From Minisyncoccota bacterium (GTDB lineage: Bacteria > Patescibacteriota > Minisyncoccia > Phycocordibacterales > UBA918): a DNA stretch of 46,613 bases. The notes beneath the pieces are model-generated. The model saw nothing but the letters and a program-made list of their open reading frames with translations. It did no database searches and was not told the DNA's origin. Below are positions 2,422-46,601 of the stretch, piece by piece. The DNA lies in contig JAYVBM010000014.1 of assembly GCA_043750495.1 (NCBI GenBank), forward strand, positions 1-46,613, read 5' to 3'. Made by a program: the position numbers and the translations under genes. Within the stretch, counting starts at the first letter, position 1, and each line of letters begins with the position of its first letter.

Positions 2422-2451
2422 AGTATACCCCCATACTAACTTTACTGTCAC
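2422..2451 (-). promoter_or_regulatory. promoter-like GTGACA-N18-TATACT inside the 3' arm of the hairpin element, 10 nt before the mscS ATG
   Basis: minus strand reads GTGACAgtaaagttagtatgggggTATACTtagtgcgtatATG. Confidence 0.4.
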
Positions 2452-2562
2452 TCTGTTTTTCGTTAACTTTTCCACAAACATATAGACTATTATGCACGCG
2501 AACTTTGCACTTGGGTGAAATTTATCCGCAATACAACAGCAAAGTTAGTGCCGGGGGTATAC
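2423..2562 (-). repeat. hairpin element copy 1 (~140 bp, minus orientation)
   Basis: The reverse complement fits the family consensus GTATACCCC..CACTAACTTT..CTGT ... GAAAAACAgAGtGACAgtAAAGTTAGT..GGGGTATAC. The terminal ~26 nt are inverted repeats. Confidence 0.85.
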
Positions 2563-2629
2563 CGTACACAATGTACTAAATTTGCTTGCTTTGTTTAAAT
2601 CTCTACAGCTTACATTGCGCTTGTAGTGA

Positions 2630-2765
2630 TATACCCCCACACCAACTTTCCTGTTGTTTTTGCGACAAAGACAACAGATATCGACCCTGGTAGCGCAGAC
2701 AAAGATACCTGTTTATTAAATACTGAATAAAAGAGAGCGACAGGAAAGTTGGTGTCGGGGTATAC
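2630..2765 (+). repeat. hairpin element copy 2 (~136 bp)
   Basis: tatacccccacaccaactttcctgt...acaggaaagttggtgtcggggtatac. The arms pair with each other and carry compensated changes relative to the other copies. Confidence 0.85.
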
Positions 2766-2766
2766 T
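2737..2766 (+). promoter_or_regulatory. promoter-like GCGACA-N18-TATACT in the 3' arm of copy 2, 6 nt before ATG 2773
   Basis: GCGACAggaaagttggtgtcggggTATACTtggtctATG. Confidence 0.4.
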
Positions 2767-2772
2767 TGGTCT

Positions 2773-8991: not shown

Positions 8992-9062
8992 TCGGGGAGC
9001 GGAGAATCGAACTCCGACCGCTCGGTCCCAAACCGAGTACACTACCACTATGCTACACCCCG
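8992..9062 (-). tRNA. tRNA-Pro (anticodon UGG), no encoded CCA
   Basis: Minus strand CGGGGTGTAGCATAGTGGTAGTGTACTCGGTTTGGGACCGAGCGGTCGGAGTTCGATTCTCCGCTCCCCGA folds as a cloverleaf with anticodon loop TTTGGGA. One T:T mismatch in the acceptor stem. Confidence 0.9.
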
Positions 9063-9090: not shown

Positions 9091-9152
9091 TATTAATCCT
9101 GAAATATAAGAAATAAAAGTGAACTTTAATTTCTTATATTTCAGGATTAATA
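9091..9152. repeat. perfect 23-24-bp inverted repeat with a 14-nt loop
   Basis: attaatcctgaaatataagaaat (9092-9114) and atttcttatatttcaggattaat (9129-9151). Confidence 0.9.
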
Positions 9153-9593: not shown

Positions 9594-9663
9594 GTCTCAA
9601 TCATATCACAAAGTTGCGACAATATGTTTCACGTGGCACGTATTAAGCATGTTTCATATGGAA

Positions 9664-12704: not shown

Positions 12705-13454
12705 CTAGCCGCACATCTCCCACAAGGCGTCGAAGAAGTTTTGATAGCCGGCGGCGGTTTCTTGGCTGTATAGGTAGTAGGCGAGGACGGGGTTGGCGAA
12801 CGAGTTTATCGATACACTATTCGGGCGGATGAGGGTGTTGGTGTTGTTTTTGGTGTATCCTTTAATACTTCGGATGGAAAAGTCAGGGCGATGAGCGACT
12901 TCCTTGGGCAAGATGTCTTTGTTTGGTTCGGTACTAAGATATTGAATGTTAATTTGTTTCTTTTTTCGCATTTCATCGTACAACCCCAGCTCATGACCCA
13001 TGAGTTCCATAAAAATGTCACCGCTTCCACCGAGGATGCGCCACGTTTCTCCTTCGCTCGCTCGTTCAAGTTCGACAAATTCATTTGCAACAAACGCTTC
13101 CTGGCCCTGAAACACACAGAAGTCTTGTGTGTGTTCCTTGCCAGTGAGTGCAAGTAATTCTTGCTCAACGTCTTTGGCGACTTCATGTGTGCGCTTCACG
13201 AGGGCAGTGAGTCCCGATGGGGGATTGGCAGCAAATTTCTTGCGACCGCGCACGGTCGCAACGCGCACTAAACCACTAGCTTCAAGGCTCGCGAGTGCGT
13301 CGTAGACAAACTGGCCATGCAAACCTGTCTTTGTGATCACCTTGCCACTCCCAACCATGTCGCCAAGCTCCAAGAGCGCCACATACACAAACGCTTCTTT
13401 ACTAGTGAGGCCAGTCTGTTCCAATTTTTTATAAAGTGAGTTATTTATTTTCAT
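12705..13454 (-). CDS. TrmB-family transcriptional regulator (paralogue of 5988-6728)
   Basis: LTSKEAFVYVALLELGDMVGSGKVITKTGLHGQFVYDALASLEASGLV. I prefer the ATG at 13454 over the upstream TTG at 13496. Confidence 0.65.
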   Translation of the reverse strand: MKINNSLYKKLEQTGLTSKEAFVYVALLELGDMVGSGKVITKTGLHGQFVYDALASLEASGLVRVATVRGRKKFAANPPSGLTALVKRTHEVAKDVEQELLALTGKEHTQDFCVFQGQEAFVANEFVELERASEGETWRILGGSGDIFMELMGHELGLYDEMRKKKQINIQYLSTEPNKDILPKEVAHRPDFSIRSIKGYTKNNTNTLIRPNSVSINSFANPVLAYYLYSQETAAGYQNFFDALWEMCG

Positions 13455-13593
13455 CAAACTTTTTTGATATTTGTATAATTTATTATTACAAATCAATACT
13501 AAACTGTCAACTTTTTATCATCATAATTAATTGATATATAGTAACTTCTATGGTATAGTCTTATTAGTTTGAACATTACGGGAGTACATTGAA

Positions 13594-13989
13594 ATGGAAC
13601 AGCTTATTCTTACCCTAGGAGTGGCCGGCATGGACGTCCTGCACAGTTTTCTATTTGGAATATCGTGCGCAGCCATGATGTGGGGTGTCAGCTGCACATA
13701 TACGCGTCTCGGTTTTGAAGTTGCATTAATTTCTACGTTGGTTGGAGTTGTACTATGCGTATCAATTTTGGCAGTATTGGAAATAGAAGCAAACAACGCA
13801 AGTACCAACCTGAGTAACCGGGTAACACCGGCTGTTAACCACGAGACTGTAGAGAAGTTGACTGCAGTTGGTACGTGCCGTTACACGCGCGACACAACAC
13901 TGTGGATTATAGACGGAGTGATTGTGCGCAAGCTCGTTGTTGACGGTACGTATACTTGCGTCCCTGATAATAAGGAGCTAGCGATATGA
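13594..13989 (+). CDS. hypothetical membrane protein
   Basis: 131 aa with 2-3 N-terminal TM helices. GGGAG lies upstream and TGGTATAGT further upstream. Confidence 0.4.
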   Translation: MEQLILTLGVAGMDVLHSFLFGISCAAMMWGVSCTYTRLGFEVALISTLVGVVLCVSILAVLEIEANNASTNLSNRVTPAVNHETVEKLTAVGTCRYTRDTTLWIIDGVIVRKLVVDGTYTCVPDNKELAI

Positions 13990-14183
13990 TGTTTGATCGA
14001 AGGGAATTAGTGCTGCTGGTATCGGCGTTGCTAACCATCATTTTGTGTCTCAGTCCGCGATTCCGTCGCTCAATGATAGAAAAAGTTCCGCTACTGCGGC
14101 TGACGACCGCGGCGATACTCATCTACACCGCAGCGGGCGTTGTCGTTCAACTCTTGTTTCCACAGGAGATTACGTTATGGTAA
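13986..14183 (+). CDS. hypothetical small membrane protein
   Basis: 65 aa with two hydrophobic helices. ATGA start/stop overlap with the preceding ORF. Confidence 0.35.
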   Translation: MMFDRRELVLLVSALLTIILCLSPRFRRSMIEKVPLLRLTTAAILIYTAAGVVVQLLFPQEITLW

Positions 14184-14971
14184 GCAAGCCCACACTAACC
14201 ATTTCCGCTCGGGACATTATCCAGAAGACCTGGATTCCTGAAGGGTCGGTTGAGTACAACATTTTTAAGCTCAAGACACTTGAAAATGATGACTTGGTGC
14301 GAATCATCAAGAAGCATTTGTCCATCGGTCCAAACGACTACGTGCTTGATGTCGGGGGACGTGACGGTAATGTGGCGTTTCGGGTACAAAATGCCGACCA
14401 CGTTGATATCGTCGACCCCGACCCGTTTATCGAGCCGCTTCAAAAGCCCGACAACTTCTGGCGCGATAAGGTGCAGCATGTGCAGTTTCCTTCCGACCGG
14501 AAGTACAAGCTTATTATCTGCTGTCACGTCATGGGGTACTTGGGTTTGCAGCGGACACAGAAGGAGGTAGCCGAGAAACTGGTTGATTTACTCGAGAAAG
14601 ATGGCGTCTTGTTGCTCTTTTACAACACCAACCATGGCTACATGGCGGAGTTGCTGGAATATTCAAGACACATTCAATTCGGCCACTACGACTACTTCGA
14701 TGTTGATATCCTGGAGGAATACAAAACCCCAGACTACGCCATCAAACAGCTCGACCGCTCGTACACGCTCGACTACGGAGACTTTATGGCGCTGGCGCGT
14801 ATGTGCTGGTTCCTCTTTGGGGCGATGGAGATTGATGTCGACAAGGTAGCGGAGAAGTTCCTACCAAAGTTGACTTACGATCTCCTCGAACCAACCTTCG
14901 AAATCGACGAGCGAATGACACTGATTATCAAGCGTCAAAGCGAAATCTTGTTCCCGACGTTAACAAGGTAA
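14177..14971 (+). CDS. class I SAM-dependent methyltransferase
   Basis: Motif I VLDVGGRDGNVAF. AGGAG lies 8 nt before ATG 14177. Overlaps the preceding ORF by 7 nt. Confidence 0.7.
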   Translation: MVSKPTLTISARDIIQKTWIPEGSVEYNIFKLKTLENDDLVRIIKKHLSIGPNDYVLDVGGRDGNVAFRVQNADHVDIVDPDPFIEPLQKPDNFWRDKVQHVQFPSDRKYKLIICCHVMGYLGLQRTQKEVAEKLVDLLEKDGVLLLFYNTNHGYMAELLEYSRHIQFGHYDYFDVDILEEYKTPDYAIKQLDRSYTLDYGDFMALARMCWFLFGAMEIDVDKVAEKFLPKLTYDLLEPTFEIDERMTLIIKRQSEILFPTLTR

Positions 14972-14978
14972 AGCTCAA

Positions 14979-15014
14979 GGGCCGGTTTGTGTAAGCAAAC
15001 CGGCCCTTTCTTTG
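14979..15014 (+). terminator. rho-independent terminator
   Basis: gggccggtttg-tgtaag-caaaccggccc then tttctttg. Confidence 0.8.
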
Positions 15015-15166
15015 TGGTCACGAATCACTAAGTATATTTGTTCGTCTTCGACTCCAAATCTACTAAGTGTTCTCGACCCCGGCTCGACTGTTTTTCTCCC
15101 TAGGAAGGGGAGAAAAGCATGGCTGCGCCTTGCACAGAGACATAAAAGCAACGCAGGTTGCTTTCT

Positions 15167-15203
15167 AAAAGAAATGACTGCCTTAAAGCCAGTCATTTCT
15201 TTT
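15167..15203 (-). terminator. hairpin terminator downstream of tRNA-Arg
   Basis: aaaagaaatgactg...cagtcatttctttt. Confidence 0.65.
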
Positions 15204-15210
15204 ACCTCTG

Positions 15211-15282
15211 TGCACCCACCAGGACTCGAACCTAGGACGACTGTTCCGAAGACAGTAATGATATCCACTTCACCATGGGTGC
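15211..15282 (-). tRNA. tRNA-Arg (anticodon UCG), no encoded CCA
   Basis: Minus strand GCACCCATGGTGAAGTGGATATCATTACTGTCTTCGGAACAGTCGTCCTAGGTTCGAGTCCTGGTGGGTGCA forms a cloverleaf with anticodon loop CTTCGGA. Confidence 0.9.
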
Positions 15283-15325
15283 ATTGTGTGTGCCGAAGTG
15301 TACTACTGATTCTTATAAGATTCAA

Positions 15326-15613
15326 CTAAAACTGATTGGGCCAAAGGCGGGCTTGGTGGCGCACGGCCAGTACTTGAATCTCATTGTTTGAAATACGATA
15401 TACTACAACATACTGTGAACGAGGTACGATAAGTTCTCTTGTTCCATCAACACGGCCGGTGCGACCACTTAACGGGGCAGTCTGTAGTTGCTTAGTAGTG
15501 AAGTGAGCAATGTCTTTAACGACACTTGGGCCGGCGGGTGACTGTTGCTCTAGTAGATAGTGAAGAATGCCTTCGAAGTCTTTCTGGGCTTGTGTTTGCC
15601 AACGAATTATCAT
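15326..15613 (-). CDS. ParE/RelE-family type II toxin
   Basis: 95 aa, ...GRVDGTRELIVPRSQYVVVYRISNNEIQVLAVRHQAR, typical of ParE/RelE. Lies 11 nt downstream of an RHH gene. Confidence 0.8.
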   Translation of the reverse strand: MIIRWQTQAQKDFEGILHYLLEQQSPAGPSVVKDIAHFTTKQLQTAPLSGRTGRVDGTRELIVPRSQYVVVYRISNNEIQVLAVRHQARLWPNQF

Positions 15614-15624
15614 AAAGCTGGCTA

Positions 15625-15906
15625 CTAAGTAACTTTGGGCGAAGGTAATGGACTTTCAGTACCAAGGGAATTAGCCCAGGCCATCATATCTTCGTGAGAA
15701 ATAAGTTCGCCACGGTCGGCGGAAGCGATCGCCACTCTCACCATTTCGTCTTGCCGTTCAAGCATATGGAGATAATCAGCAACAACCTCCTGCACCAAAA
15801 ATGCCTTGGAACGCTTTGTACGTTTAGCCTCCTGCTCCAACTTTTCTTTTGTTTGTCTGTCGACGCGAAAGGTAAGTGTGGTTGTATTTGTGTCTGATTG
15901 TGACAT
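15625..15906 (-). CDS. ribbon-helix-helix (CopG/ParD-like) antitoxin
   Basis: TLTFRVDRQTKEKLEQEAKRTKRSKAFLVQEVV is an RHH motif. Start taken at ATG 15906, because the longer ORF to 16170 overlaps the cca promoter and start. Confidence 0.75.
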   Translation of the reverse strand: MSQSDTNTTTLTFRVDRQTKEKLEQEAKRTKRSKAFLVQEVVADYLHMLERQDEMVRVAIASADRGELISHEDMMAWANSLGTESPLPSPKVT

Positions 15907-18498: not shown

Positions 18499-19293
18499 CT
18501 AATCAAGGCCAATATCTATAGACACTGGGCAGTGATCGCTTCCGTAGACGTCTGCATGGATGCGTGCACTTTTGACAAGTGGTGCCAAATCTTTTGATAT
18601 CATCACGTAGTCAATCCGCCAACCAACATTGCGCTCGCGCGCATTACCAAAATGTGACCACCACGTGTAGCCTCCATTTTCCTGATTGAAGATACGAAAG
18701 CTATCGATAAAGTTTTTCTTTATCATGGCATCAAAGCCACTGCGCTCTTCGTCGGTGAATCCTTTCTTGCCACGATTCTCTTTGGGTCGGGCGAGGTCCA
18801 GTTCGGTGTGCGCGACATTGAAGTCACCACAGAAGATAACCGGCTTCTCTTGTTGAAGTCTATCCATGTATTCGAGAAAGGCAGGATCCCAGGCCTGACG
18901 CATCGGAATGCGAGAAAGGTCGTCTTTGGCGTTTGGGGTATAGACGGTCGCTACATAAAATCCCTCAAACTCCGCAACAAGGACTCGACCCTCTTTGGTA
19001 GTGTCGCCATGGCTGTCGGCCAGTTGGTACTTGGCGCAAATGTCTTCCGGTAAGCCATTTATAACTTCAAGTGGAGGTATTTTGGTGAAAATTGCCGTCC
19101 CAGAATAGCCTTTTTTCTCAGCGGAACACCAATATTCCTCATAATTAGGTAAATCAACGTCAATTTGGTCTTGACTGGCCTTAGTTTCTTGAATACAGAG
19201 GATATCCGGTTGGTGTTTTTCAATAAATGGCACCAAATCGCCCTTTCGAGCCACCGCACGAATCCCGTTCATATTCCAAGAATAGATTTTCAT
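18499..19293 (-). CDS. xth: exodeoxyribonuclease III (Xth/APE1 family)
   Basis: MKIYSWNMNGIRA..CIQETK..GDFNVAH..SDHCPV motifs. Start taken at ATG 19293. Confidence 0.85.
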   Translation of the reverse strand: MKIYSWNMNGIRAVARKGDLVPFIEKHQPDILCIQETKASQDQIDVDLPNYEEYWCSAEKKGYSGTAIFTKIPPLEVINGLPEDICAKYQLADSHGDTTKEGRVLVAEFEGFYVATVYTPNAKDDLSRIPMRQAWDPAFLEYMDRLQQEKPVIFCGDFNVAHTELDLARPKENRGKKGFTDEERSGFDAMIKKNFIDSFRIFNQENGGYTWWSHFGNARERNVGWRIDYVMISKDLAPLVKSARIHADVYGSDHCPVSIDIGLD

Positions 19294-19475
19294 CCCGCTG
19301 CACAGATTGATGCTGCTGGCACGCGGTGCCAGCGTGTCCATGTATTAAAACCCTTTTTCACAACGCTATAATATCACTTATATTTGACTTCAGCACTAAC
19401 ACAGGATCAATACTTGCTGAGGGATTCATGGCTCAAGTCTACCGCATTACTAAAAAAGTTCGAATTTTATAAATT

Positions 19476-19484
19476 TGGTATAAT
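19476..19484 (+). promoter_or_regulatory. extended -10 TGGTATAAT, 6 nt before ATG 19491 (leaderless-type)
   Basis: TGGTATAATtgtcaaATG. Confidence 0.5.
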
Positions 19485-19490
19485 TGTCAA

Positions 19491-21209: not shown

Positions 21210-22334
21210 ATGTACACTCCACGATTTGAATATAGTCGGAAGTTAATTAATGAGCGGATTTCGGAACTAACATCTTTGTCAGCGCCGTTTGGGTGTACGG
21301 TGCGCTATGCGGTGAAGGCGAATCCGCATGCGGAGATTTTGAAGATAATGGATAGCGGGGGAGTGCACTTTGATGCGAGTTCGAGTTATGAGGCGGAAGG
21401 ACTTTTGCGGGCCGGCGTAGCCGGGCCGCACGTGTCGCTGTCTTCGCAGCAGAGTCCGCATAATCTGTCGGAACTTTTGGAAGCTGGGGTATTGTTTGTG
21501 GCGACTTCGTTTAAGCAACTTGAAATGTTTTTAAAAACGGCGAACAGACCCGACAAGATAGGAGTACGTATTAACCCAGCGATGGGCAGCGGGCACAACA
21601 ATCGCACCAACACCGGGGGAGTGAACTCGAGCTTTGGGATTTGGCATGAGTATGGAGAGCAGATCCGAGAAATGACTGCGGCGGCTCTTGTCACTATCGA
21701 CCGACTACACATTCATATTGGTTCTGGTGCCGACCCTTATGTGTGGGGGCAGGTGATGGATCAAGCGATTGATATTGCGCGCGAGTACCCGGACGTCGCT
21801 TCGCTCAACGTTGGCGGGGGATACAAAGTGCGCCGCATCGGCGCCGAAGTAGAAGCCAACATGACTGACATCTTCGCCACCTTCACCGAAAAGCTCGAAG
21901 CGTTTGCTGGGGAGACTGGTCGGAAACTTCATCTGGAAATTGAACCCGGGACATACTTCATCGCACACGCCGGCACGCTCGTGGCGACAGTGGATGATAT
22001 TGTCGATACGGGAAAGTACGGACACACCTTTCTTCGTCTCAATACCGGCATGAATGACTTCTTGCGCACGACTCTTTATGGCGCACAACACAAGATTGAA
22101 GTCATAAATAACGAAACTGAACTAAACCCATATATAGTGGTCGGTCACAACTGCGAGTCAGGCGACATCTTCACTACCGAAAAAGGCGACCCCGAAAGCG
22201 TTGAGCCAAGAATGCTGAAGAGAGCGAACATTGGCGACACCGTACATATATATGATGTCGGTGCCTACTGCGCGAGTATGCGCGCCAAAGGATACAACTC
22301 ATTTCCTGATGCAACTGAGCTAATGGTGGAGTAG
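21210..22334 (+). CDS. PLP-dependent decarboxylase, Orn/DAP/Arg decarboxylase family 2 (diaminopimelate-decarboxylase-like)
   Basis: YAVKAN (PLP lysine), HIHIGSG, NVGGG, CESGD. TGCTATACT lies 8 nt before ATG 21210. Confidence 0.8.
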   Translation: MYTPRFEYSRKLINERISELTSLSAPFGCTVRYAVKANPHAEILKIMDSGGVHFDASSSYEAEGLLRAGVAGPHVSLSSQQSPHNLSELLEAGVLFVATSFKQLEMFLKTANRPDKIGVRINPAMGSGHNNRTNTGGVNSSFGIWHEYGEQIREMTAAALVTIDRLHIHIGSGADPYVWGQVMDQAIDIAREYPDVASLNVGGGYKVRRIGAEVEANMTDIFATFTEKLEAFAGETGRKLHLEIEPGTYFIAHAGTLVATVDDIVDTGKYGHTFLRLNTGMNDFLRTTLYGAQHKIEVINNETELNPYIVVGHNCESGDIFTTEKGDPESVEPRMLKRANIGDTVHIYDVGAYCASMRAKGYNSFPDATELMVE

Positions 22335-22354
22335 TAAATGTTATAATCTAAAGT

Positions 22355-29829: not shown

Positions 29830-29924
29830 GACACTAGTATAGCAAGGCCTAGGCGGTTTCTGTGGAACCTTGACTTAAGTAAAAAATATGACATACTTCC
29901 AGCCAGAAATACCGTGGAGGTTTC

Positions 29925-34855: not shown

Positions 34856-36505
34856 ATGAGTGACGAACTCAAAAAAACACTGCCCCGTATTCGAACGTTT
34901 GCGGATGACTTTGAACATGACAGAAAAGAGAGTGGTTTACCTCTACCGCCTGGTGTTTCTGCGCCTCAAGCAGTCGAACCAACACCCATGGCAGCGTCAC
35001 CACAAATTGTGATCCTAACAGACACTGCAAAAAGTGAGGGCGACGCTATGGTTAACACACCGGTCCCCGCATTCCATGAGCTGAAGAAGCGAAGTTCGTC
35101 TGACAACATAGCCGCACCAGAAAAGGCAGCTGCGATCCAAACAAGACCGATACGTCAGGTCGCGCCGATTGAGGAATCAGGAGCAAAAACGGTAGTTGTC
35201 AGACGTACAAAAACAGCTACCTCGCCAAAACCAGTATCGAGCGCCGGTGCCACAATAATTACTGACAACAAACGTAACAAACAAGGTCTCGTACCTGCTC
35301 TAATTGAAGCCGTGCGTGGCTGGTTCAAAAAAATGTCGGCTGACGCGAAGCAAAAGCCTACCCCGAAATACACAGTTGTTGATACCGAAAGAAGAAAGGG
35401 TGTTATTCAAAAAGCCACAACCAAAACTGGCACTATCTTCACGGCAGACAATGAAACTCTGAAAGAAGAAATACGTCGACGCAACTGGAAAAAACAAGCG
35501 ACAGACAGCGACGAGCCAGATATAACGTGGTCTCCAAACATAGAGGTTGGCTATCCGCTCCTTGATTCAGGCCTACCTAAGCCTAACAATGTAAATGTAG
35601 AATTTAAACGACGAGTTGAGCCAACCCCAGTTGTGCCGCCGGCACCCACAGTTATTGTACCGCCACATGTATTTGTTGAACCAACAATACCAGAGCCAGT
35701 AGTAGTCCCCGAACCAGCTATAGTGACACCTCCACCAGAAGCTCCGACTGAGCCTATAGTCTCTTATGTAGAGGAACCTGAGCCAGAGCCTGAACCCGAA
35801 TACGCACTCACTACACCTGAAGCGCACTATCGTATCAGAAGTATTGGAGATGTCACAAAACTAAATACTAACCTACTTTCAATTGGAGTGGTCGGTATTG
35901 TTGCCGGGATTATTATTGTGATACTAGTTGGGAGATTACTTGTGGGATTTATACTTGCAGACGATCCTTTGGGGGACGTTCTCCCGGCCACACCAATAGC
36001 CCTTGGCACCTCGGTTACTGACCTGGCACTTGACGCCCCTACTCAAGAAGCTTTACTCATTGCGCTACAACAAATACCAGACGATGTGCGTGCCCAGCAT
36101 GAATTTAGAATCGTAGATAGAAAAGGCCTTCCGTTGCAAAAGTCTGTCCTGCTGCCACTACTTGGATTTACTAACTCTGGTAGCCTAAGTCAAACAATCG
36201 TTGACCTACACATTCTTTACACACAAGACACCCGAGGCATTGTCTTTACAGTTACCGATGCCACTACTGCGTTTGGTTCGCTGCTGGCTTGGGAAGTGTA
36301 CATGGTAGACAGTTTGGGACCAATACTAAATATAATACCGCCAACTGAAACTATCGTTGTGTCTGATCGTACTATCGCAAATACTGACGTCCGTATCTTT
36401 ACCGCTGGCGATCAAGAGATACTGGTATATGGATTTGTCGGGGCTAACAAAGTCCTGATTACCAAAGACTTCCCGTCATTTACGGCGACTCTAGGCAGTC
36501 AGTAG
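34856..36505 (+). CDS. hypothetical single-pass membrane protein with a Pro/Glu-rich linker
   Basis: 549-aa ORF with a low-complexity PEP-rich stretch, then a TM helix (LLSIGVVGIVAGIIIVILVG) and a C-terminal domain. Confidence 0.5.
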   Translation: MSDELKKTLPRIRTFADDFEHDRKESGLPLPPGVSAPQAVEPTPMAASPQIVILTDTAKSEGDAMVNTPVPAFHELKKRSSSDNIAAPEKAAAIQTRPIRQVAPIEESGAKTVVVRRTKTATSPKPVSSAGATIITDNKRNKQGLVPALIEAVRGWFKKMSADAKQKPTPKYTVVDTERRKGVIQKATTKTGTIFTADNETLKEEIRRRNWKKQATDSDEPDITWSPNIEVGYPLLDSGLPKPNNVNVEFKRRVEPTPVVPPAPTVIVPPHVFVEPTIPEPVVVPEPAIVTPPPEAPTEPIVSYVEEPEPEPEPEYALTTPEAHYRIRSIGDVTKLNTNLLSIGVVGIVAGIIIVILVGRLLVGFILADDPLGDVLPATPIALGTSVTDLALDAPTQEALLIALQQIPDDVRAQHEFRIVDRKGLPLQKSVLLPLLGFTNSGSLSQTIVDLHILYTQDTRGIVFTVTDATTAFGSLLAWEVYMVDSLGPILNIIPPTETIVVSDRTIANTDVRIFTAGDQEILVYGFVGANKVLITKDFPSFTATLGSQ

Positions 36506-36514
36506 CCGGATGCG

Positions 36515-36651
36515 GTATATCCCGACACTAACTTTAGTGTAGTTTTTGCTAGCGCCCATCATTCTTGTTCCAAACAACTCAGACGAAAAGCGGACTAGGT
36601 AGTGAAAAGAGTGAAAAACACTAGCGACACGAAAGTTAGTGTGGGGTATAC
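36515..36651 (+). repeat. hairpin element copy 3 (~137 bp)
   Basis: gtatatcccgacactaactttagtgtagtttttgctagc ... gaaaaacactagcgacacgaaagttagtgtggggtatac. Confidence 0.85.
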
Positions 36652-36652
36652 T
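36624..36652 (+). promoter_or_regulatory. promoter-like GCGACA-N17-TATACT in the 3' arm of copy 3, 8 nt before ATG 36661
   Basis: GCGACAcgaaagttagtgtggggTATACTcaccctatATG. Confidence 0.4.
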
Positions 36653-36660
36653 CACCCTAT

Positions 36661-43808: not shown

Positions 43809-43947
43809 GTATACCCCGACACTAACTTTCATGTAGTTTTTGCGAGCATTCATCATTGTGACCGATAGGTGGAACTATAAGTAGCATGTTGAACTGTTTT
43901 AATGTGGAGAAAAACTTGAGCGACAAGAAAGTTAGTGCGGGGTATAC
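43809..43947 (+). repeat. hairpin element copy 4 (~139 bp)
   Basis: gtataccccgacactaactttcatgtagtttttgcgagc ... gaaaaacttgagcgacaagaaagttagtgcggggtatac. Confidence 0.85.
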
Positions 43948-44079
43948 CCCGACACTAACTTTCTTGTAGTTTTTGCTAGCCTCTAGTGTTAATCCTACAA
44001 ACAGACTTTCGCAACATGCTGACTAGGCAATGAATAGCGTGTAAAACACTAGCGACAAGAAAGTTAGTGCGGGGTATAG
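43942..44079 (+). repeat. hairpin element copy 5 (~138 bp), sharing GTATAC with copy 4
   Basis: gtataccccgacactaactttcttgtagtttttgctagc ... taaaacactagcgacaagaaagttagtgcggggtatag. Confidence 0.85.
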
Positions 44080-44080
44080 T
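44052..44080 (+). promoter_or_regulatory. promoter-like GCGACA-N17-TATAGT in the 3' arm of copy 5, 8 nt before ATG 44089
   Basis: GCGACAagaaagttagtgcggggTATAGTgtccgcacATG. Confidence 0.4.
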
Positions 44081-46058: not shown

Positions 46059-46082
46059 CTACCTATCATACATGATAGGTAG
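46059..46082. promoter_or_regulatory. 24-bp palindrome, candidate operator 1
   Basis: CTACCTATCATacATGATAGGTAG. Confidence 0.55.
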
Positions 46083-46108: not shown

Positions 46109-46130
46109 TACCTATCATGTATGATAGGTA
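46109..46130. promoter_or_regulatory. 22-bp palindrome, candidate operator 2, overlapping a -10-like TATGAT 8 nt before ATG 46134
   Basis: TACCTATCATgtATGATAGGTA. Confidence 0.55.
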
Positions 46131-46133
46131 GAT

Positions 46134-46574
46134 ATGAAAAGAGAAATTAGTAAAATTAAAGAGAAAGAAAAGAAGGCCACACTTGAAGCCCTATACGAAT
46201 CGGCTAGTCGTATCAAAGGTGACGACGCAGTTCGCATATTTATCAGCGACATACTAACGGAAAGTGAACGAATCATTGTTGGTCGCAGGTTGTTAATTGC
46301 GAATCTAATTTTGACTGGTCAGACTTACTCAGAAGTTCACAATCAACTTGGTGTGAGTCCAAACACTTTCAGTCGGATCAGACAATGGTTGACTGGCCGA
46401 TTTCCGGACTATGACAAAACTCTTAAAGAAACCGCACCGACTCCCAAAAAGACCAAAGTTATCTACACCAGGGTGGCGCCTTTTTCATTTGCCCATCTAA
46501 AAAAGAAGTACCCCATGCACTACTTACTTTTTACTCTTTCCGAAAAAACGATCGCCAACTTGAAATCGAAGTAA
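46134..46574 (+). CDS. TrpR-like (YerC/YecD-family) DNA-binding protein
   Basis: ILTESERIIVGRRLLIANLILTGQTYSEVHNQLGVSPNTFSRIRQWL resembles the Trp-repressor-like YerC/YecD fold. Confidence 0.65.
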   Translation: MKREISKIKEKEKKATLEALYESASRIKGDDAVRIFISDILTESERIIVGRRLLIANLILTGQTYSEVHNQLGVSPNTFSRIRQWLTGRFPDYDKTLKETAPTPKKTKVIYTRVAPFSFAHLKKKYPMHYLLFTLSEKTIANLKSK

Positions 46575-46579
46575 TACTT

Positions 46580-46601
46580 TACCTATCACGTATGATAGGT
46601 A
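46580..46601. promoter_or_regulatory. 22-bp palindrome copy 3 (one arm mismatch), 5 nt after the stop codon
   Basis: TACCTATCACgtATGATAGGTA. Confidence 0.5.

Follow-up and report, generated by a model that had tools for sequence, protein, structure and literature searches.

A putative MITE family at the TATA of predicted -10 hexamers upstream of start codons in a Minisyncoccota contig

Correia elements (CREE/NEMIS) of Neisseria are small, non-autonomous elements with terminal inverted repeats that are mostly located just 5' of genes (PMC2649163, PMC10969869). At their gene-proximal end, they can form the so-called Black promoter, for which the -35 and part of the -10 come from the element and the rest of the -10 from the native sequence (PMC2649163; PMC10969869). 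Here, we analyzed a stretch of 46,613 nucleotides from a Minisyncoccota bacterium (GCA_043750495.1, contig JAYVBM010000014.1; from here on, the window) that carries five copies (c1 to c5) of a repeat. Judged by its structure, this repeat is a small non-coding transposon, i.e., a class II non-autonomous MITE. Correia elements and the window MITE are alike in being small and non-autonomous, in having terminal inverted repeats, in lying 5' of genes, and in forming long hairpins. Both also have an AT-rich target, which is TA for Correia elements, the termini of which read TATA, and TATA for the window MITE. However, the Correia terminus TATAG[CT]GGATTAAC (TATAG[CT]GGATTAA...) has no sequence similarity to the window MITE, in which TATA is followed by CCCCGACACTAACTTT, and the target duplication is TA in the former and 4 bp (TATA) in the latter. 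Based on the different terminus and the TATA duplication, we rejected membership in the Correia/CREE family; the similarity is confined to the way of working. Also unlike in the Correia system, the -10 hexamer in the window was there before the insertion and is restored by the duplication, the promoter is a predicted one only, the downstream genes appear leaderless with the ATG 6-10 nt after the hexamer, and the host is a CPR bacterium.

Hybrid promoters are also formed by IS1, IS2, and the IS257/IS26 family, which have an outward -35-like hexamer near the end that is combined with a resident -10 at a spacing of ~17 nt. The window MITE similarly has an outward -35-like hexamer near its end joined to a resident -10. 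However, these insertion sequences are autonomous and usually activate silent or weak genes, whereas the window MITE is non-autonomous and lies inside a promoter that would already be functional. In a full-text literature search, no paper evidently describing MITEs in Patescibacteria was found, as far as the titles and abstracts of the matches tell. The window MITE is an undescribed family in a CPR bacterium with a behavior resembling that of Correia elements, and it shows that an active MITE family exists in CPR bacteria.

Copies of the element and their relatives

A reading based on the sequence only (from here on, the sequence-only reading) had reported that two copies in opposite orientation fill the divergent intergenic region at 2423-2765. 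We found both copies there, as repeats of ~135 bp including flanks, and three more elsewhere in the window. Together with the part of the mscS/protease spacer left between c1 and c2, they are as follows:

2424..2561, minus strand: c1, with TATA at 2424-2427, a 130-bp body at 2428-2557, and TATA at 2558-2561; right arm toward mscS
2630..2764, plus strand: c2, with a 127-bp body at 2634-2760 between two TATA; right arm toward the gene for a trypsin-like protease
36516..36650, plus strand: c3, body at 36520-36646; between the stop of a gene for a 549-aa protein and the gene for a DksA/TraR-like protein
43810..43946, plus strand: c4, body at 43814-43942; its right TATA at 43943-43946 is the left TATA of c5
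43943..44078, plus strand: c5, body at 43947-44074; right arm toward uvrD/pcrA
2562..2629, no strand: remnant of the ancestral ~95-nt mscS/protease spacer, from the alignment with orthologous spacers; contains CTTTGTTTAAATCTCT at 2589-2604

The body of the copies (CCCC...GGGG) has a length of 127-130 bp and is bordered by terminal inverted repeats of ~26 nt that are up to 96% complementary, while the sub-terminal sequence is asymmetric. The left end reads CCCCGACACTAACTTTC... and the right end ...GAAAGTTAGTGYGGGG; inward of the repeats, the left side goes on as TGTAGTTTTTGC, and the right side is preceded by GAAAAAC..AGCGACA. The two arms are near-identical over the first ~26 nt and almost so to about -36, and their main difference is a hexamer, which is GCGACA in the right arm and ACTACA/ACAACA in the left arm. 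All ten flanks are TATA, of which c4 and c5 have one in common, in line with the earlier description of c4 as abutting c5. The terminal-inverted-repeat pattern has seven matches in the window versus 0.00 expected from shuffles. Because stops break all six-frame translations and none of the frames stays open in all copies, they have no coding capacity, and a search of protein databases with element-encoded peptides was dropped for this reason. REP/BIME or IS200/IS605-derived elements are imperfect, short palindromes that lack terminal repeats and cause no target duplication; we rejected this classification since the copies are ~130 bp long and have terminal repeats and a 4-bp duplication.

The orientation of c1, which had been said to fit the consensus only as a reverse complement, was reproduced using nhmmer with a five-copy model (95 bits in the chosen and 25 bits in the other orientation). 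The scores in forward versus reverse orientation were 97 versus 42 bits for c2, 113 versus 37 for c3, 114 versus 31 for c4, and 106 versus 39 for c5. With one orientation favored by ~55-83 bits per copy, the orientation calls are secure.

The repeats fold into long, very stable hairpins (z = -5.8 to -8.4), and a facing position pair in the arms of c2 orthologues reads T-A, then C.A, then C-G, i.e., one compensatory change. Both observations would fit the possibility that the MITE is a transcribed 5' leader or cis-regulatory RNA (riboswitch, attenuator, or small RNA) or provides a ribosome-binding site by its GGGG end. However, Rfam models identified three tRNAs only in the window and no family at the gathering score on the MITE copies; at 2350-2850, the only matches were to plant miRNA precursor models with 21-25 bits compared to gathering scores of 85-100. 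The copy centers are unrelated in sequence, with that of c2 evolving neutrally, and the best promoter signal is at the gene-side end, which would place the MITE upstream of the transcript. Together with the presence/absence differences and the target duplication described below, which are those of a mobile element, these findings make a leader RNA very improbable. The GGGG end as a Shine-Dalgarno site was rejected because it is 12-16 nt from the ATG and, thus, too far away. A search for intrinsic terminators inside the copies gave a single weak call, in c1.

Searches for further copies gave few relatives. The exact terminal-repeat pattern had no match in 185,579 species-representative genomes and none in viral contigs, and in JGI metagenomes it identified one degenerate MITE-sized copy (L004) upstream of rplI. 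A looser pattern based on a sister family (see below) gave 10 single matches lacking an inverted partner, which we take as chance matches. In the 12.6 kb beyond the window (L001, L010), there was no further copy; contig ends had no partial copies except in L012, and ~90 kb from related lineages contained only orthologous copies of c2 and c3. Neither a full-length element nor a transposase with these ends was found in the representative genomes, JGI metagenomes, viral contigs, or related loci. An IS481-like transposase in L006 was considered as the partner and rejected, as there are no matching repeats around it. Families known for 4-bp duplications, such as IS1380, IS5, or IS701, may be candidates for the partner. 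Separately, L107 (GCA_043727615.1) has at 12797-15829 a block, absent from the window, with genes for an HTH protein, a RepSA/REP-like protein, and a large serine recombinase beside NUDIX genes, and this block is probably an integrative element.

When the nhmmer model was run on 80 uvrD loci of other genomes, only a sister family in L016 was recovered, with E > 1:

L016 11975-12206 and 16207-16437: sister MITE family, in JBAZWZ010000003.1 of the Candidatus Paceibacterota MAG SO_2017_GW1_44

The terminus of this family, TATA followed by CCCCCACACCTACTTTT, is related to that of c2 (CCCCCACACCAACTTTC). The sister elements are ~105 bp long. Arranged in tandem or nested, they are found on the downstream side of uvrD and between a pair of divergent genes; the sequence at the end of one copy is GGGGGTATACTgtcactATG, with a 6-nt gap. 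They differ from the window MITE in the interior sequence, in that both arm types point toward genes, and in that some flanks have decayed (TGTA/TACA). The L004 copy and the sister family lie 21-46 nt from starts (21 and 46 nt in L016).

Filled and empty orthologous sites

The closest named relatives of the MscS, DksA-like, and UvrD proteins are encoded by MAGs labelled Candidatus Paceibacterota, Parcubacteria, or Patescibacteria, and contigs near-identical to the window occur among ENA and Logan metagenome assemblies. Sibling populations are represented in ENA (ERZ27315236, ERZ28573544, and ERZ28573510) and Logan (SRR23617142 and SRR23617227). The mscS/protease spacer compares as follows:

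Window: 361 nt, with c1 and c2
L005 (MscS 88% identity): 224 nt, with c2 and without c1
L006 (MscS 78%): 95 nt, element-free
L007 (MscS 76%): 95 nt, element-free

At the orthologous site of c1, L005, L006, and L007 have a single cggTATACT instead of the element. c2 is present at the same site in L005, L106, L107, and L108 and is absent from L006 and L007, in which the empty protease-side site reads TGaTATACTgtgtctATG. L094, which is syntenic and encodes a DksA-like protein with 81% identity, lacks c4 and c5; its uvrD site reads TGgTATAGTgtccgcacATG, exactly as predicted when each of the two elements is taken out of the window together with one TATA. More distant uvrD orthologues (L013, 73%; L014, 65%) are also element-free and have TGnTATAGT. 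Thus, filled sites have the structure TATA-element-TATA, while empty sites have a single TATA (c1, c2, and c4/c5), and because filled and empty orthologous sites differ by exactly that, the net insertion is the body plus one TATA. The simplest reading, given the near-symmetric repeats and the TATA common to c4 and c5, would be a 4-bp TATA target duplication; an asymmetric boundary with a 2-bp duplication is formally possible. The presence/absence differences together with the target duplication identify a mobile element.

Within the remnant of the mscS/protease spacer, the 16-nt block CTTTGTTTAAATCTCT (2589-2604) is invariant in four lineages, while the spacer around it has diverged; this block may be a shared regulatory site.

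The copies appear to differ in age. c3 has orthologous copies in L093, L094, and L095 and is present in the 88% and the 76-81% lineages, whereas c1 was seen in the window lineage alone, as were c4 and c5 when the lineages other than the 88% one were compared. The order of insertion would be c3 as the oldest copy, c2 next, and then c1, c4, and c5. Before the insertion of c3, there were ~25 nt between the stop of the upstream gene and the ATG of the dksA-like gene (region 36503-36660), with a -10 box directly after the stop; the 549-aa protein encoded upstream of c3 has no Pfam match.

The oldest copies are also conserved. Between the window and L094, c3 has an identity of 93.3%, compared to 74-79% for the flanking genes and 48-53% for third codon positions. 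For c2, the numbers of variable columns in four lineages are:

Left arm: 9 of 40
Center: 26 of 41
Gene-proximal (right) part: 6 of 56

The right part differs significantly from the center (p = 5e-8), as does the left arm (p = 3e-4), while the right and left parts do not differ significantly from each other (p = 0.16). Because the arms are far more conserved than the centers or neighboring synonymous sites, the old copies c2 and c3 are under constraint. Based on these alignments, we infer that both arms of fixed copies are under purifying selection, which is not specific to the gene-facing arm and would fit a role in the promoter region as well as a need for arm pairing. Gene conversion among copies is an unlikely cause of this conservation, as variants specific to c2 (TGTTGT, GACAGG, and AATAAAAG) are kept in all four lineages.

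Target site and distance to the start codon

The distances between arm end and ATG given in the sequence-only reading turned out to be exact when the arm end is taken as ..GGGGTATAC or ..GTATAC, i.e., 11 nt from c1 to the mscS ATG (2411, minus strand), 7 nt from c2 to the protease ATG (2773), and 9 nt each from c3 to the DksA-like ATG (36661) and from c5 to the uvrD ATG (44089). The start codons on which these distances depend are backed by the lengths of MscS homologues (284-294 aa, full coverage) and of DksA-like homologues (124 aa in nearly all), and by conservation between lineages that starts at the ATG.

The MITE has consequences for annotation and assembly. Metagenome gene callers start the protease ORF 7 codons too early, at a TTG/GTG within the MITE arm (368 versus 361 aa; window 2749-2772, L001 3813-4919, and L107 8691-9797), and in L106 they give MscS 8 codons in excess (294 aa). 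Assemblies break at the MITE, with L012 beginning at the CCCC of c5 and L112 beginning inside c3.

In the element-free orthologous intergenic regions, the single TATA is part of a -10 hexamer at the same distance to the ATG as in the window, i.e., TGaTATACT-N6-ATG for the protease gene, cggTATACT-N10-ATG for mscS, and TGgTATAGT-N8-ATG for uvrD. In every independent case in the window, the target TATA makes up positions 1-4 of a -10 hexamer (TATACT/TATAGT), and the four insertion-site hexamers are located 6, 8, 8, and 10 nt before their ATGs.

This layout is common in the window. After removal of the elements, a hexamer that agrees with TATAAT at 5 or more of 6 positions is present 5-10 nt ahead of 16 of the 49 first-ATG starts, most often at 6 nt, compared to 4 of the 227 internal ATGs used as the control (Fisher p = 2.8e-10). 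In 12 of the 16, TGn, or at least a G at -14, comes before the hexamer. A minority of the window genes have GGAGG-type ribosome-binding sites instead. TGnTATAAT-like boxes that lack a Shine-Dalgarno sequence are found, for example, at 85-96, 9594-9607 (minus strand), 19214-19490, 22077-22354, and 29830-29843 (minus strand). These counts suggest that the organism commonly uses extended -10 promoters giving leaderless mRNAs that would start at or next to the ATG. With about one-third of the genes in a Paceibacterota contig having an (extended) -10 box 5-10 nt before the ATG, widespread leaderless mRNAs are implied. Literature searches on leaderless mRNAs in Patescibacteria returned passing mentions only and nothing evidently relevant.

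The non-coding sequence of the window minus the elements contains TATA at 69 sites, 13 of which belong to a hexamer at 4-11 nt from a downstream start. The four independent insertions all fall into this class, an outcome with a probability of (13/69)^4 = 1.3e-3; the earlier suggestion that the arrangement is unlikely for randomly inserted repeats is, thus, borne out. For the more specific motif GnTATA[CG]T, there are 15 sites, of which 6 adjoin a start, and the four occupied sites are all among the 6 (p = 0.011). Of the six GGTATA[CG]T sites in the element-free window, three are occupied.

After insertion, the gene-side TATA is again completed to a hexamer by the native CT or GT, at an unchanged distance from the ATG. 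The G at -14 is restored by the GGGG at the end of the MITE, while the native T of the TGn extended -10 was removed at c2 and c4/c5. The rule of 7-11 nt between arm end and ATG follows from the choice of target and the duplication that rebuilds the -10 box. Because the constant distance derives from the choice of target, it is not evidence that the MITE brings the signal. The proposal that the element supplies or captures a 5' regulatory function, therefore, holds in its second half, since element-free orthologues already have the -10 hexamer, while supply of a function is an inferred possibility. The broader idea of a tie to the 5' control region agrees with a position inside the -10 hexamer before the ATG.

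We consider it highly likely, from the comparison of filled and empty sites, that a MITE, a TATA duplication, and a -10 hexamer as the target together explain the distance rule. In this model, the MITE integrates at the TATA of a -10 hexamer 6-10 nt upstream of an ATG and duplicates those four bases; the duplication leaves a complete hexamer on the gene side such that the promoter core keeps its distance to the start codon. Insertions at a -10 TATA would be tolerated, and those at most other TATA sites of the compact genome would not. The uniform orientation would arise either because the right arm is a usable upstream promoter half or because the transposase reads GnTATA[CG]T, and old copies would by now be constrained parts of promoter regions. 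A promoter's TATA that serves as the target and is rebuilt by duplication offers a simple mechanical reason for a repeat at a fixed distance from start codons.

Orientation of the copies relative to genes

The statement that the element is asymmetric and points the same arm toward a start codon or the next copy is true of all five window copies. To the extent that the degenerate L004 copy can be scored, its GCGACA arm likewise faces the gene. The agreement in orientation has a p of 0.06 for the 4 gene-adjacent events, 0.03 for 5 events, and 0.016 with L004 included. We conclude that the orientation rule is real but statistically weak, resting on five or six independent events. The gene-facing junctions contain the following predicted promoters:

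2422..2451, minus strand: predicted mscS junction promoter, GTGACA-N18-TATACT; ATG 10 nt after the hexamer; the -10 consists of the duplicated TATA and the native CT
2737..2766, plus strand: predicted protease junction promoter, GCGACA-N18-TATACT; ATG 2773, 6 nt after the hexamer
36624..36652, plus strand: predicted junction promoter of the gene for the DksA-like protein, GCGACA-N17-TATACT; ATG 36661, 8 nt after the hexamer
44052..44080, plus strand: predicted uvrD junction promoter, GCGACA-N17-TATAGT; ATG 44089, 8 nt after the hexamer

One explanation for the orientation, which we put forward tentatively, is that the right arm (A-tract, GCGACA/GTGACA, and the 17-18 nt spacer) and the duplicated TATA form a portable hybrid promoter, in which the arm replaces the upstream half of the disrupted native promoter and only this orientation survives selection. 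In line with this explanation, a scan with a sigma-70-like consensus called sites precisely at the four gene-facing junctions (c1, c2, c3, and c5), each matching 9-10 of 12 positions, and none at left arms, and the arms differ mainly in the GCGACA versus ACTACA/ACAACA hexamer described above. At c2 and c4/c5, where TGn has lost its T, compensation would be useful; almost no variation is seen in the right arm of c3, and little in the gene-proximal part of c2 (6 of 56 columns in four lineages); and the Black promoter of Correia elements represents a precedent (PMC2649163). Against it, GCGACA matches the -35 at 4 of 6 positions, a level met by ~12% of random positions, and the native leaderless promoters have no -35 signal (mean best match of 2.06 of 6 compared to 2.46 at random positions); for the latter reason, we downgraded supply of a -35 by the arm as the main explanation. 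Moreover, the left arm is conserved as well, the arms are near-identical to about -36 such that either orientation gives nearly the same proximal promoter, the sample comprises 5-6 events, and in the L016 sister family the other arm type abuts a start at TATACT-N6-ATG. Overall, it is plausible that the MITE supplies promoter function.

Alternatively, the transposition machinery could set the orientation by recognizing the asymmetric target GnTATA[CG]T, with the left end placed by Gn and the right end by [CG]T; as this motif is a promoter -10 region, the element would appear to point at genes. The four sites all fit the motif in the same sense relative to the element, and half of the six GGTATA[CG]T sites are occupied. 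However, near-symmetrical terminal repeats usually allow an element to insert either way round, and the motif and the promoter are the same sequence, which makes this mechanism inseparable from selection in these data. We regard it as doubtful when taken by itself, while an asymmetric target motif and selection for a hybrid promoter fit the orientation equally well.

It is rather unlikely that the agreement in orientation is a chance outcome and that only the rule on position, i.e., TATA in the -10 hexamer, is real. The modest p values of 0.016-0.06 with 4-6 events would allow for it, the similarity of the arms over 26 nt gives no strong functional reason for a bias, and the sister family follows no uniform rule. 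On the other side, all five window copies and the L004 copy agree.

A more far-reaching and, in our view, improbable scenario is that the MITE targets active promoters as such, i.e., the melted or RNA-polymerase-bound -10 of leaderless genes, in a fixed sense relative to transcription, and that fixed copies have been domesticated as upstream promoter halves in CPR bacteria. Such a domestication would explain the long-lasting conservation of both arms.

Other inverted repeats are present in the window besides the MITE copies. An AT-rich inverted repeat of 30 nt (97% complementary, 2-nt loop) is located at 9091-9152 beside a tRNA gene (8992-9062). A 22-nt palindrome, TACCTATCAT..ATGATAGGTA, occurs three times (46060-46081, 46109-46130, and 46580-46601) around a TrpR/YerC-like gene (46134-46574), and its second copy (46109-46130) overlaps the -10 box of this gene (TATGAT, 8 nt before the ATG). 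These three palindromes look like operators for autoregulation.
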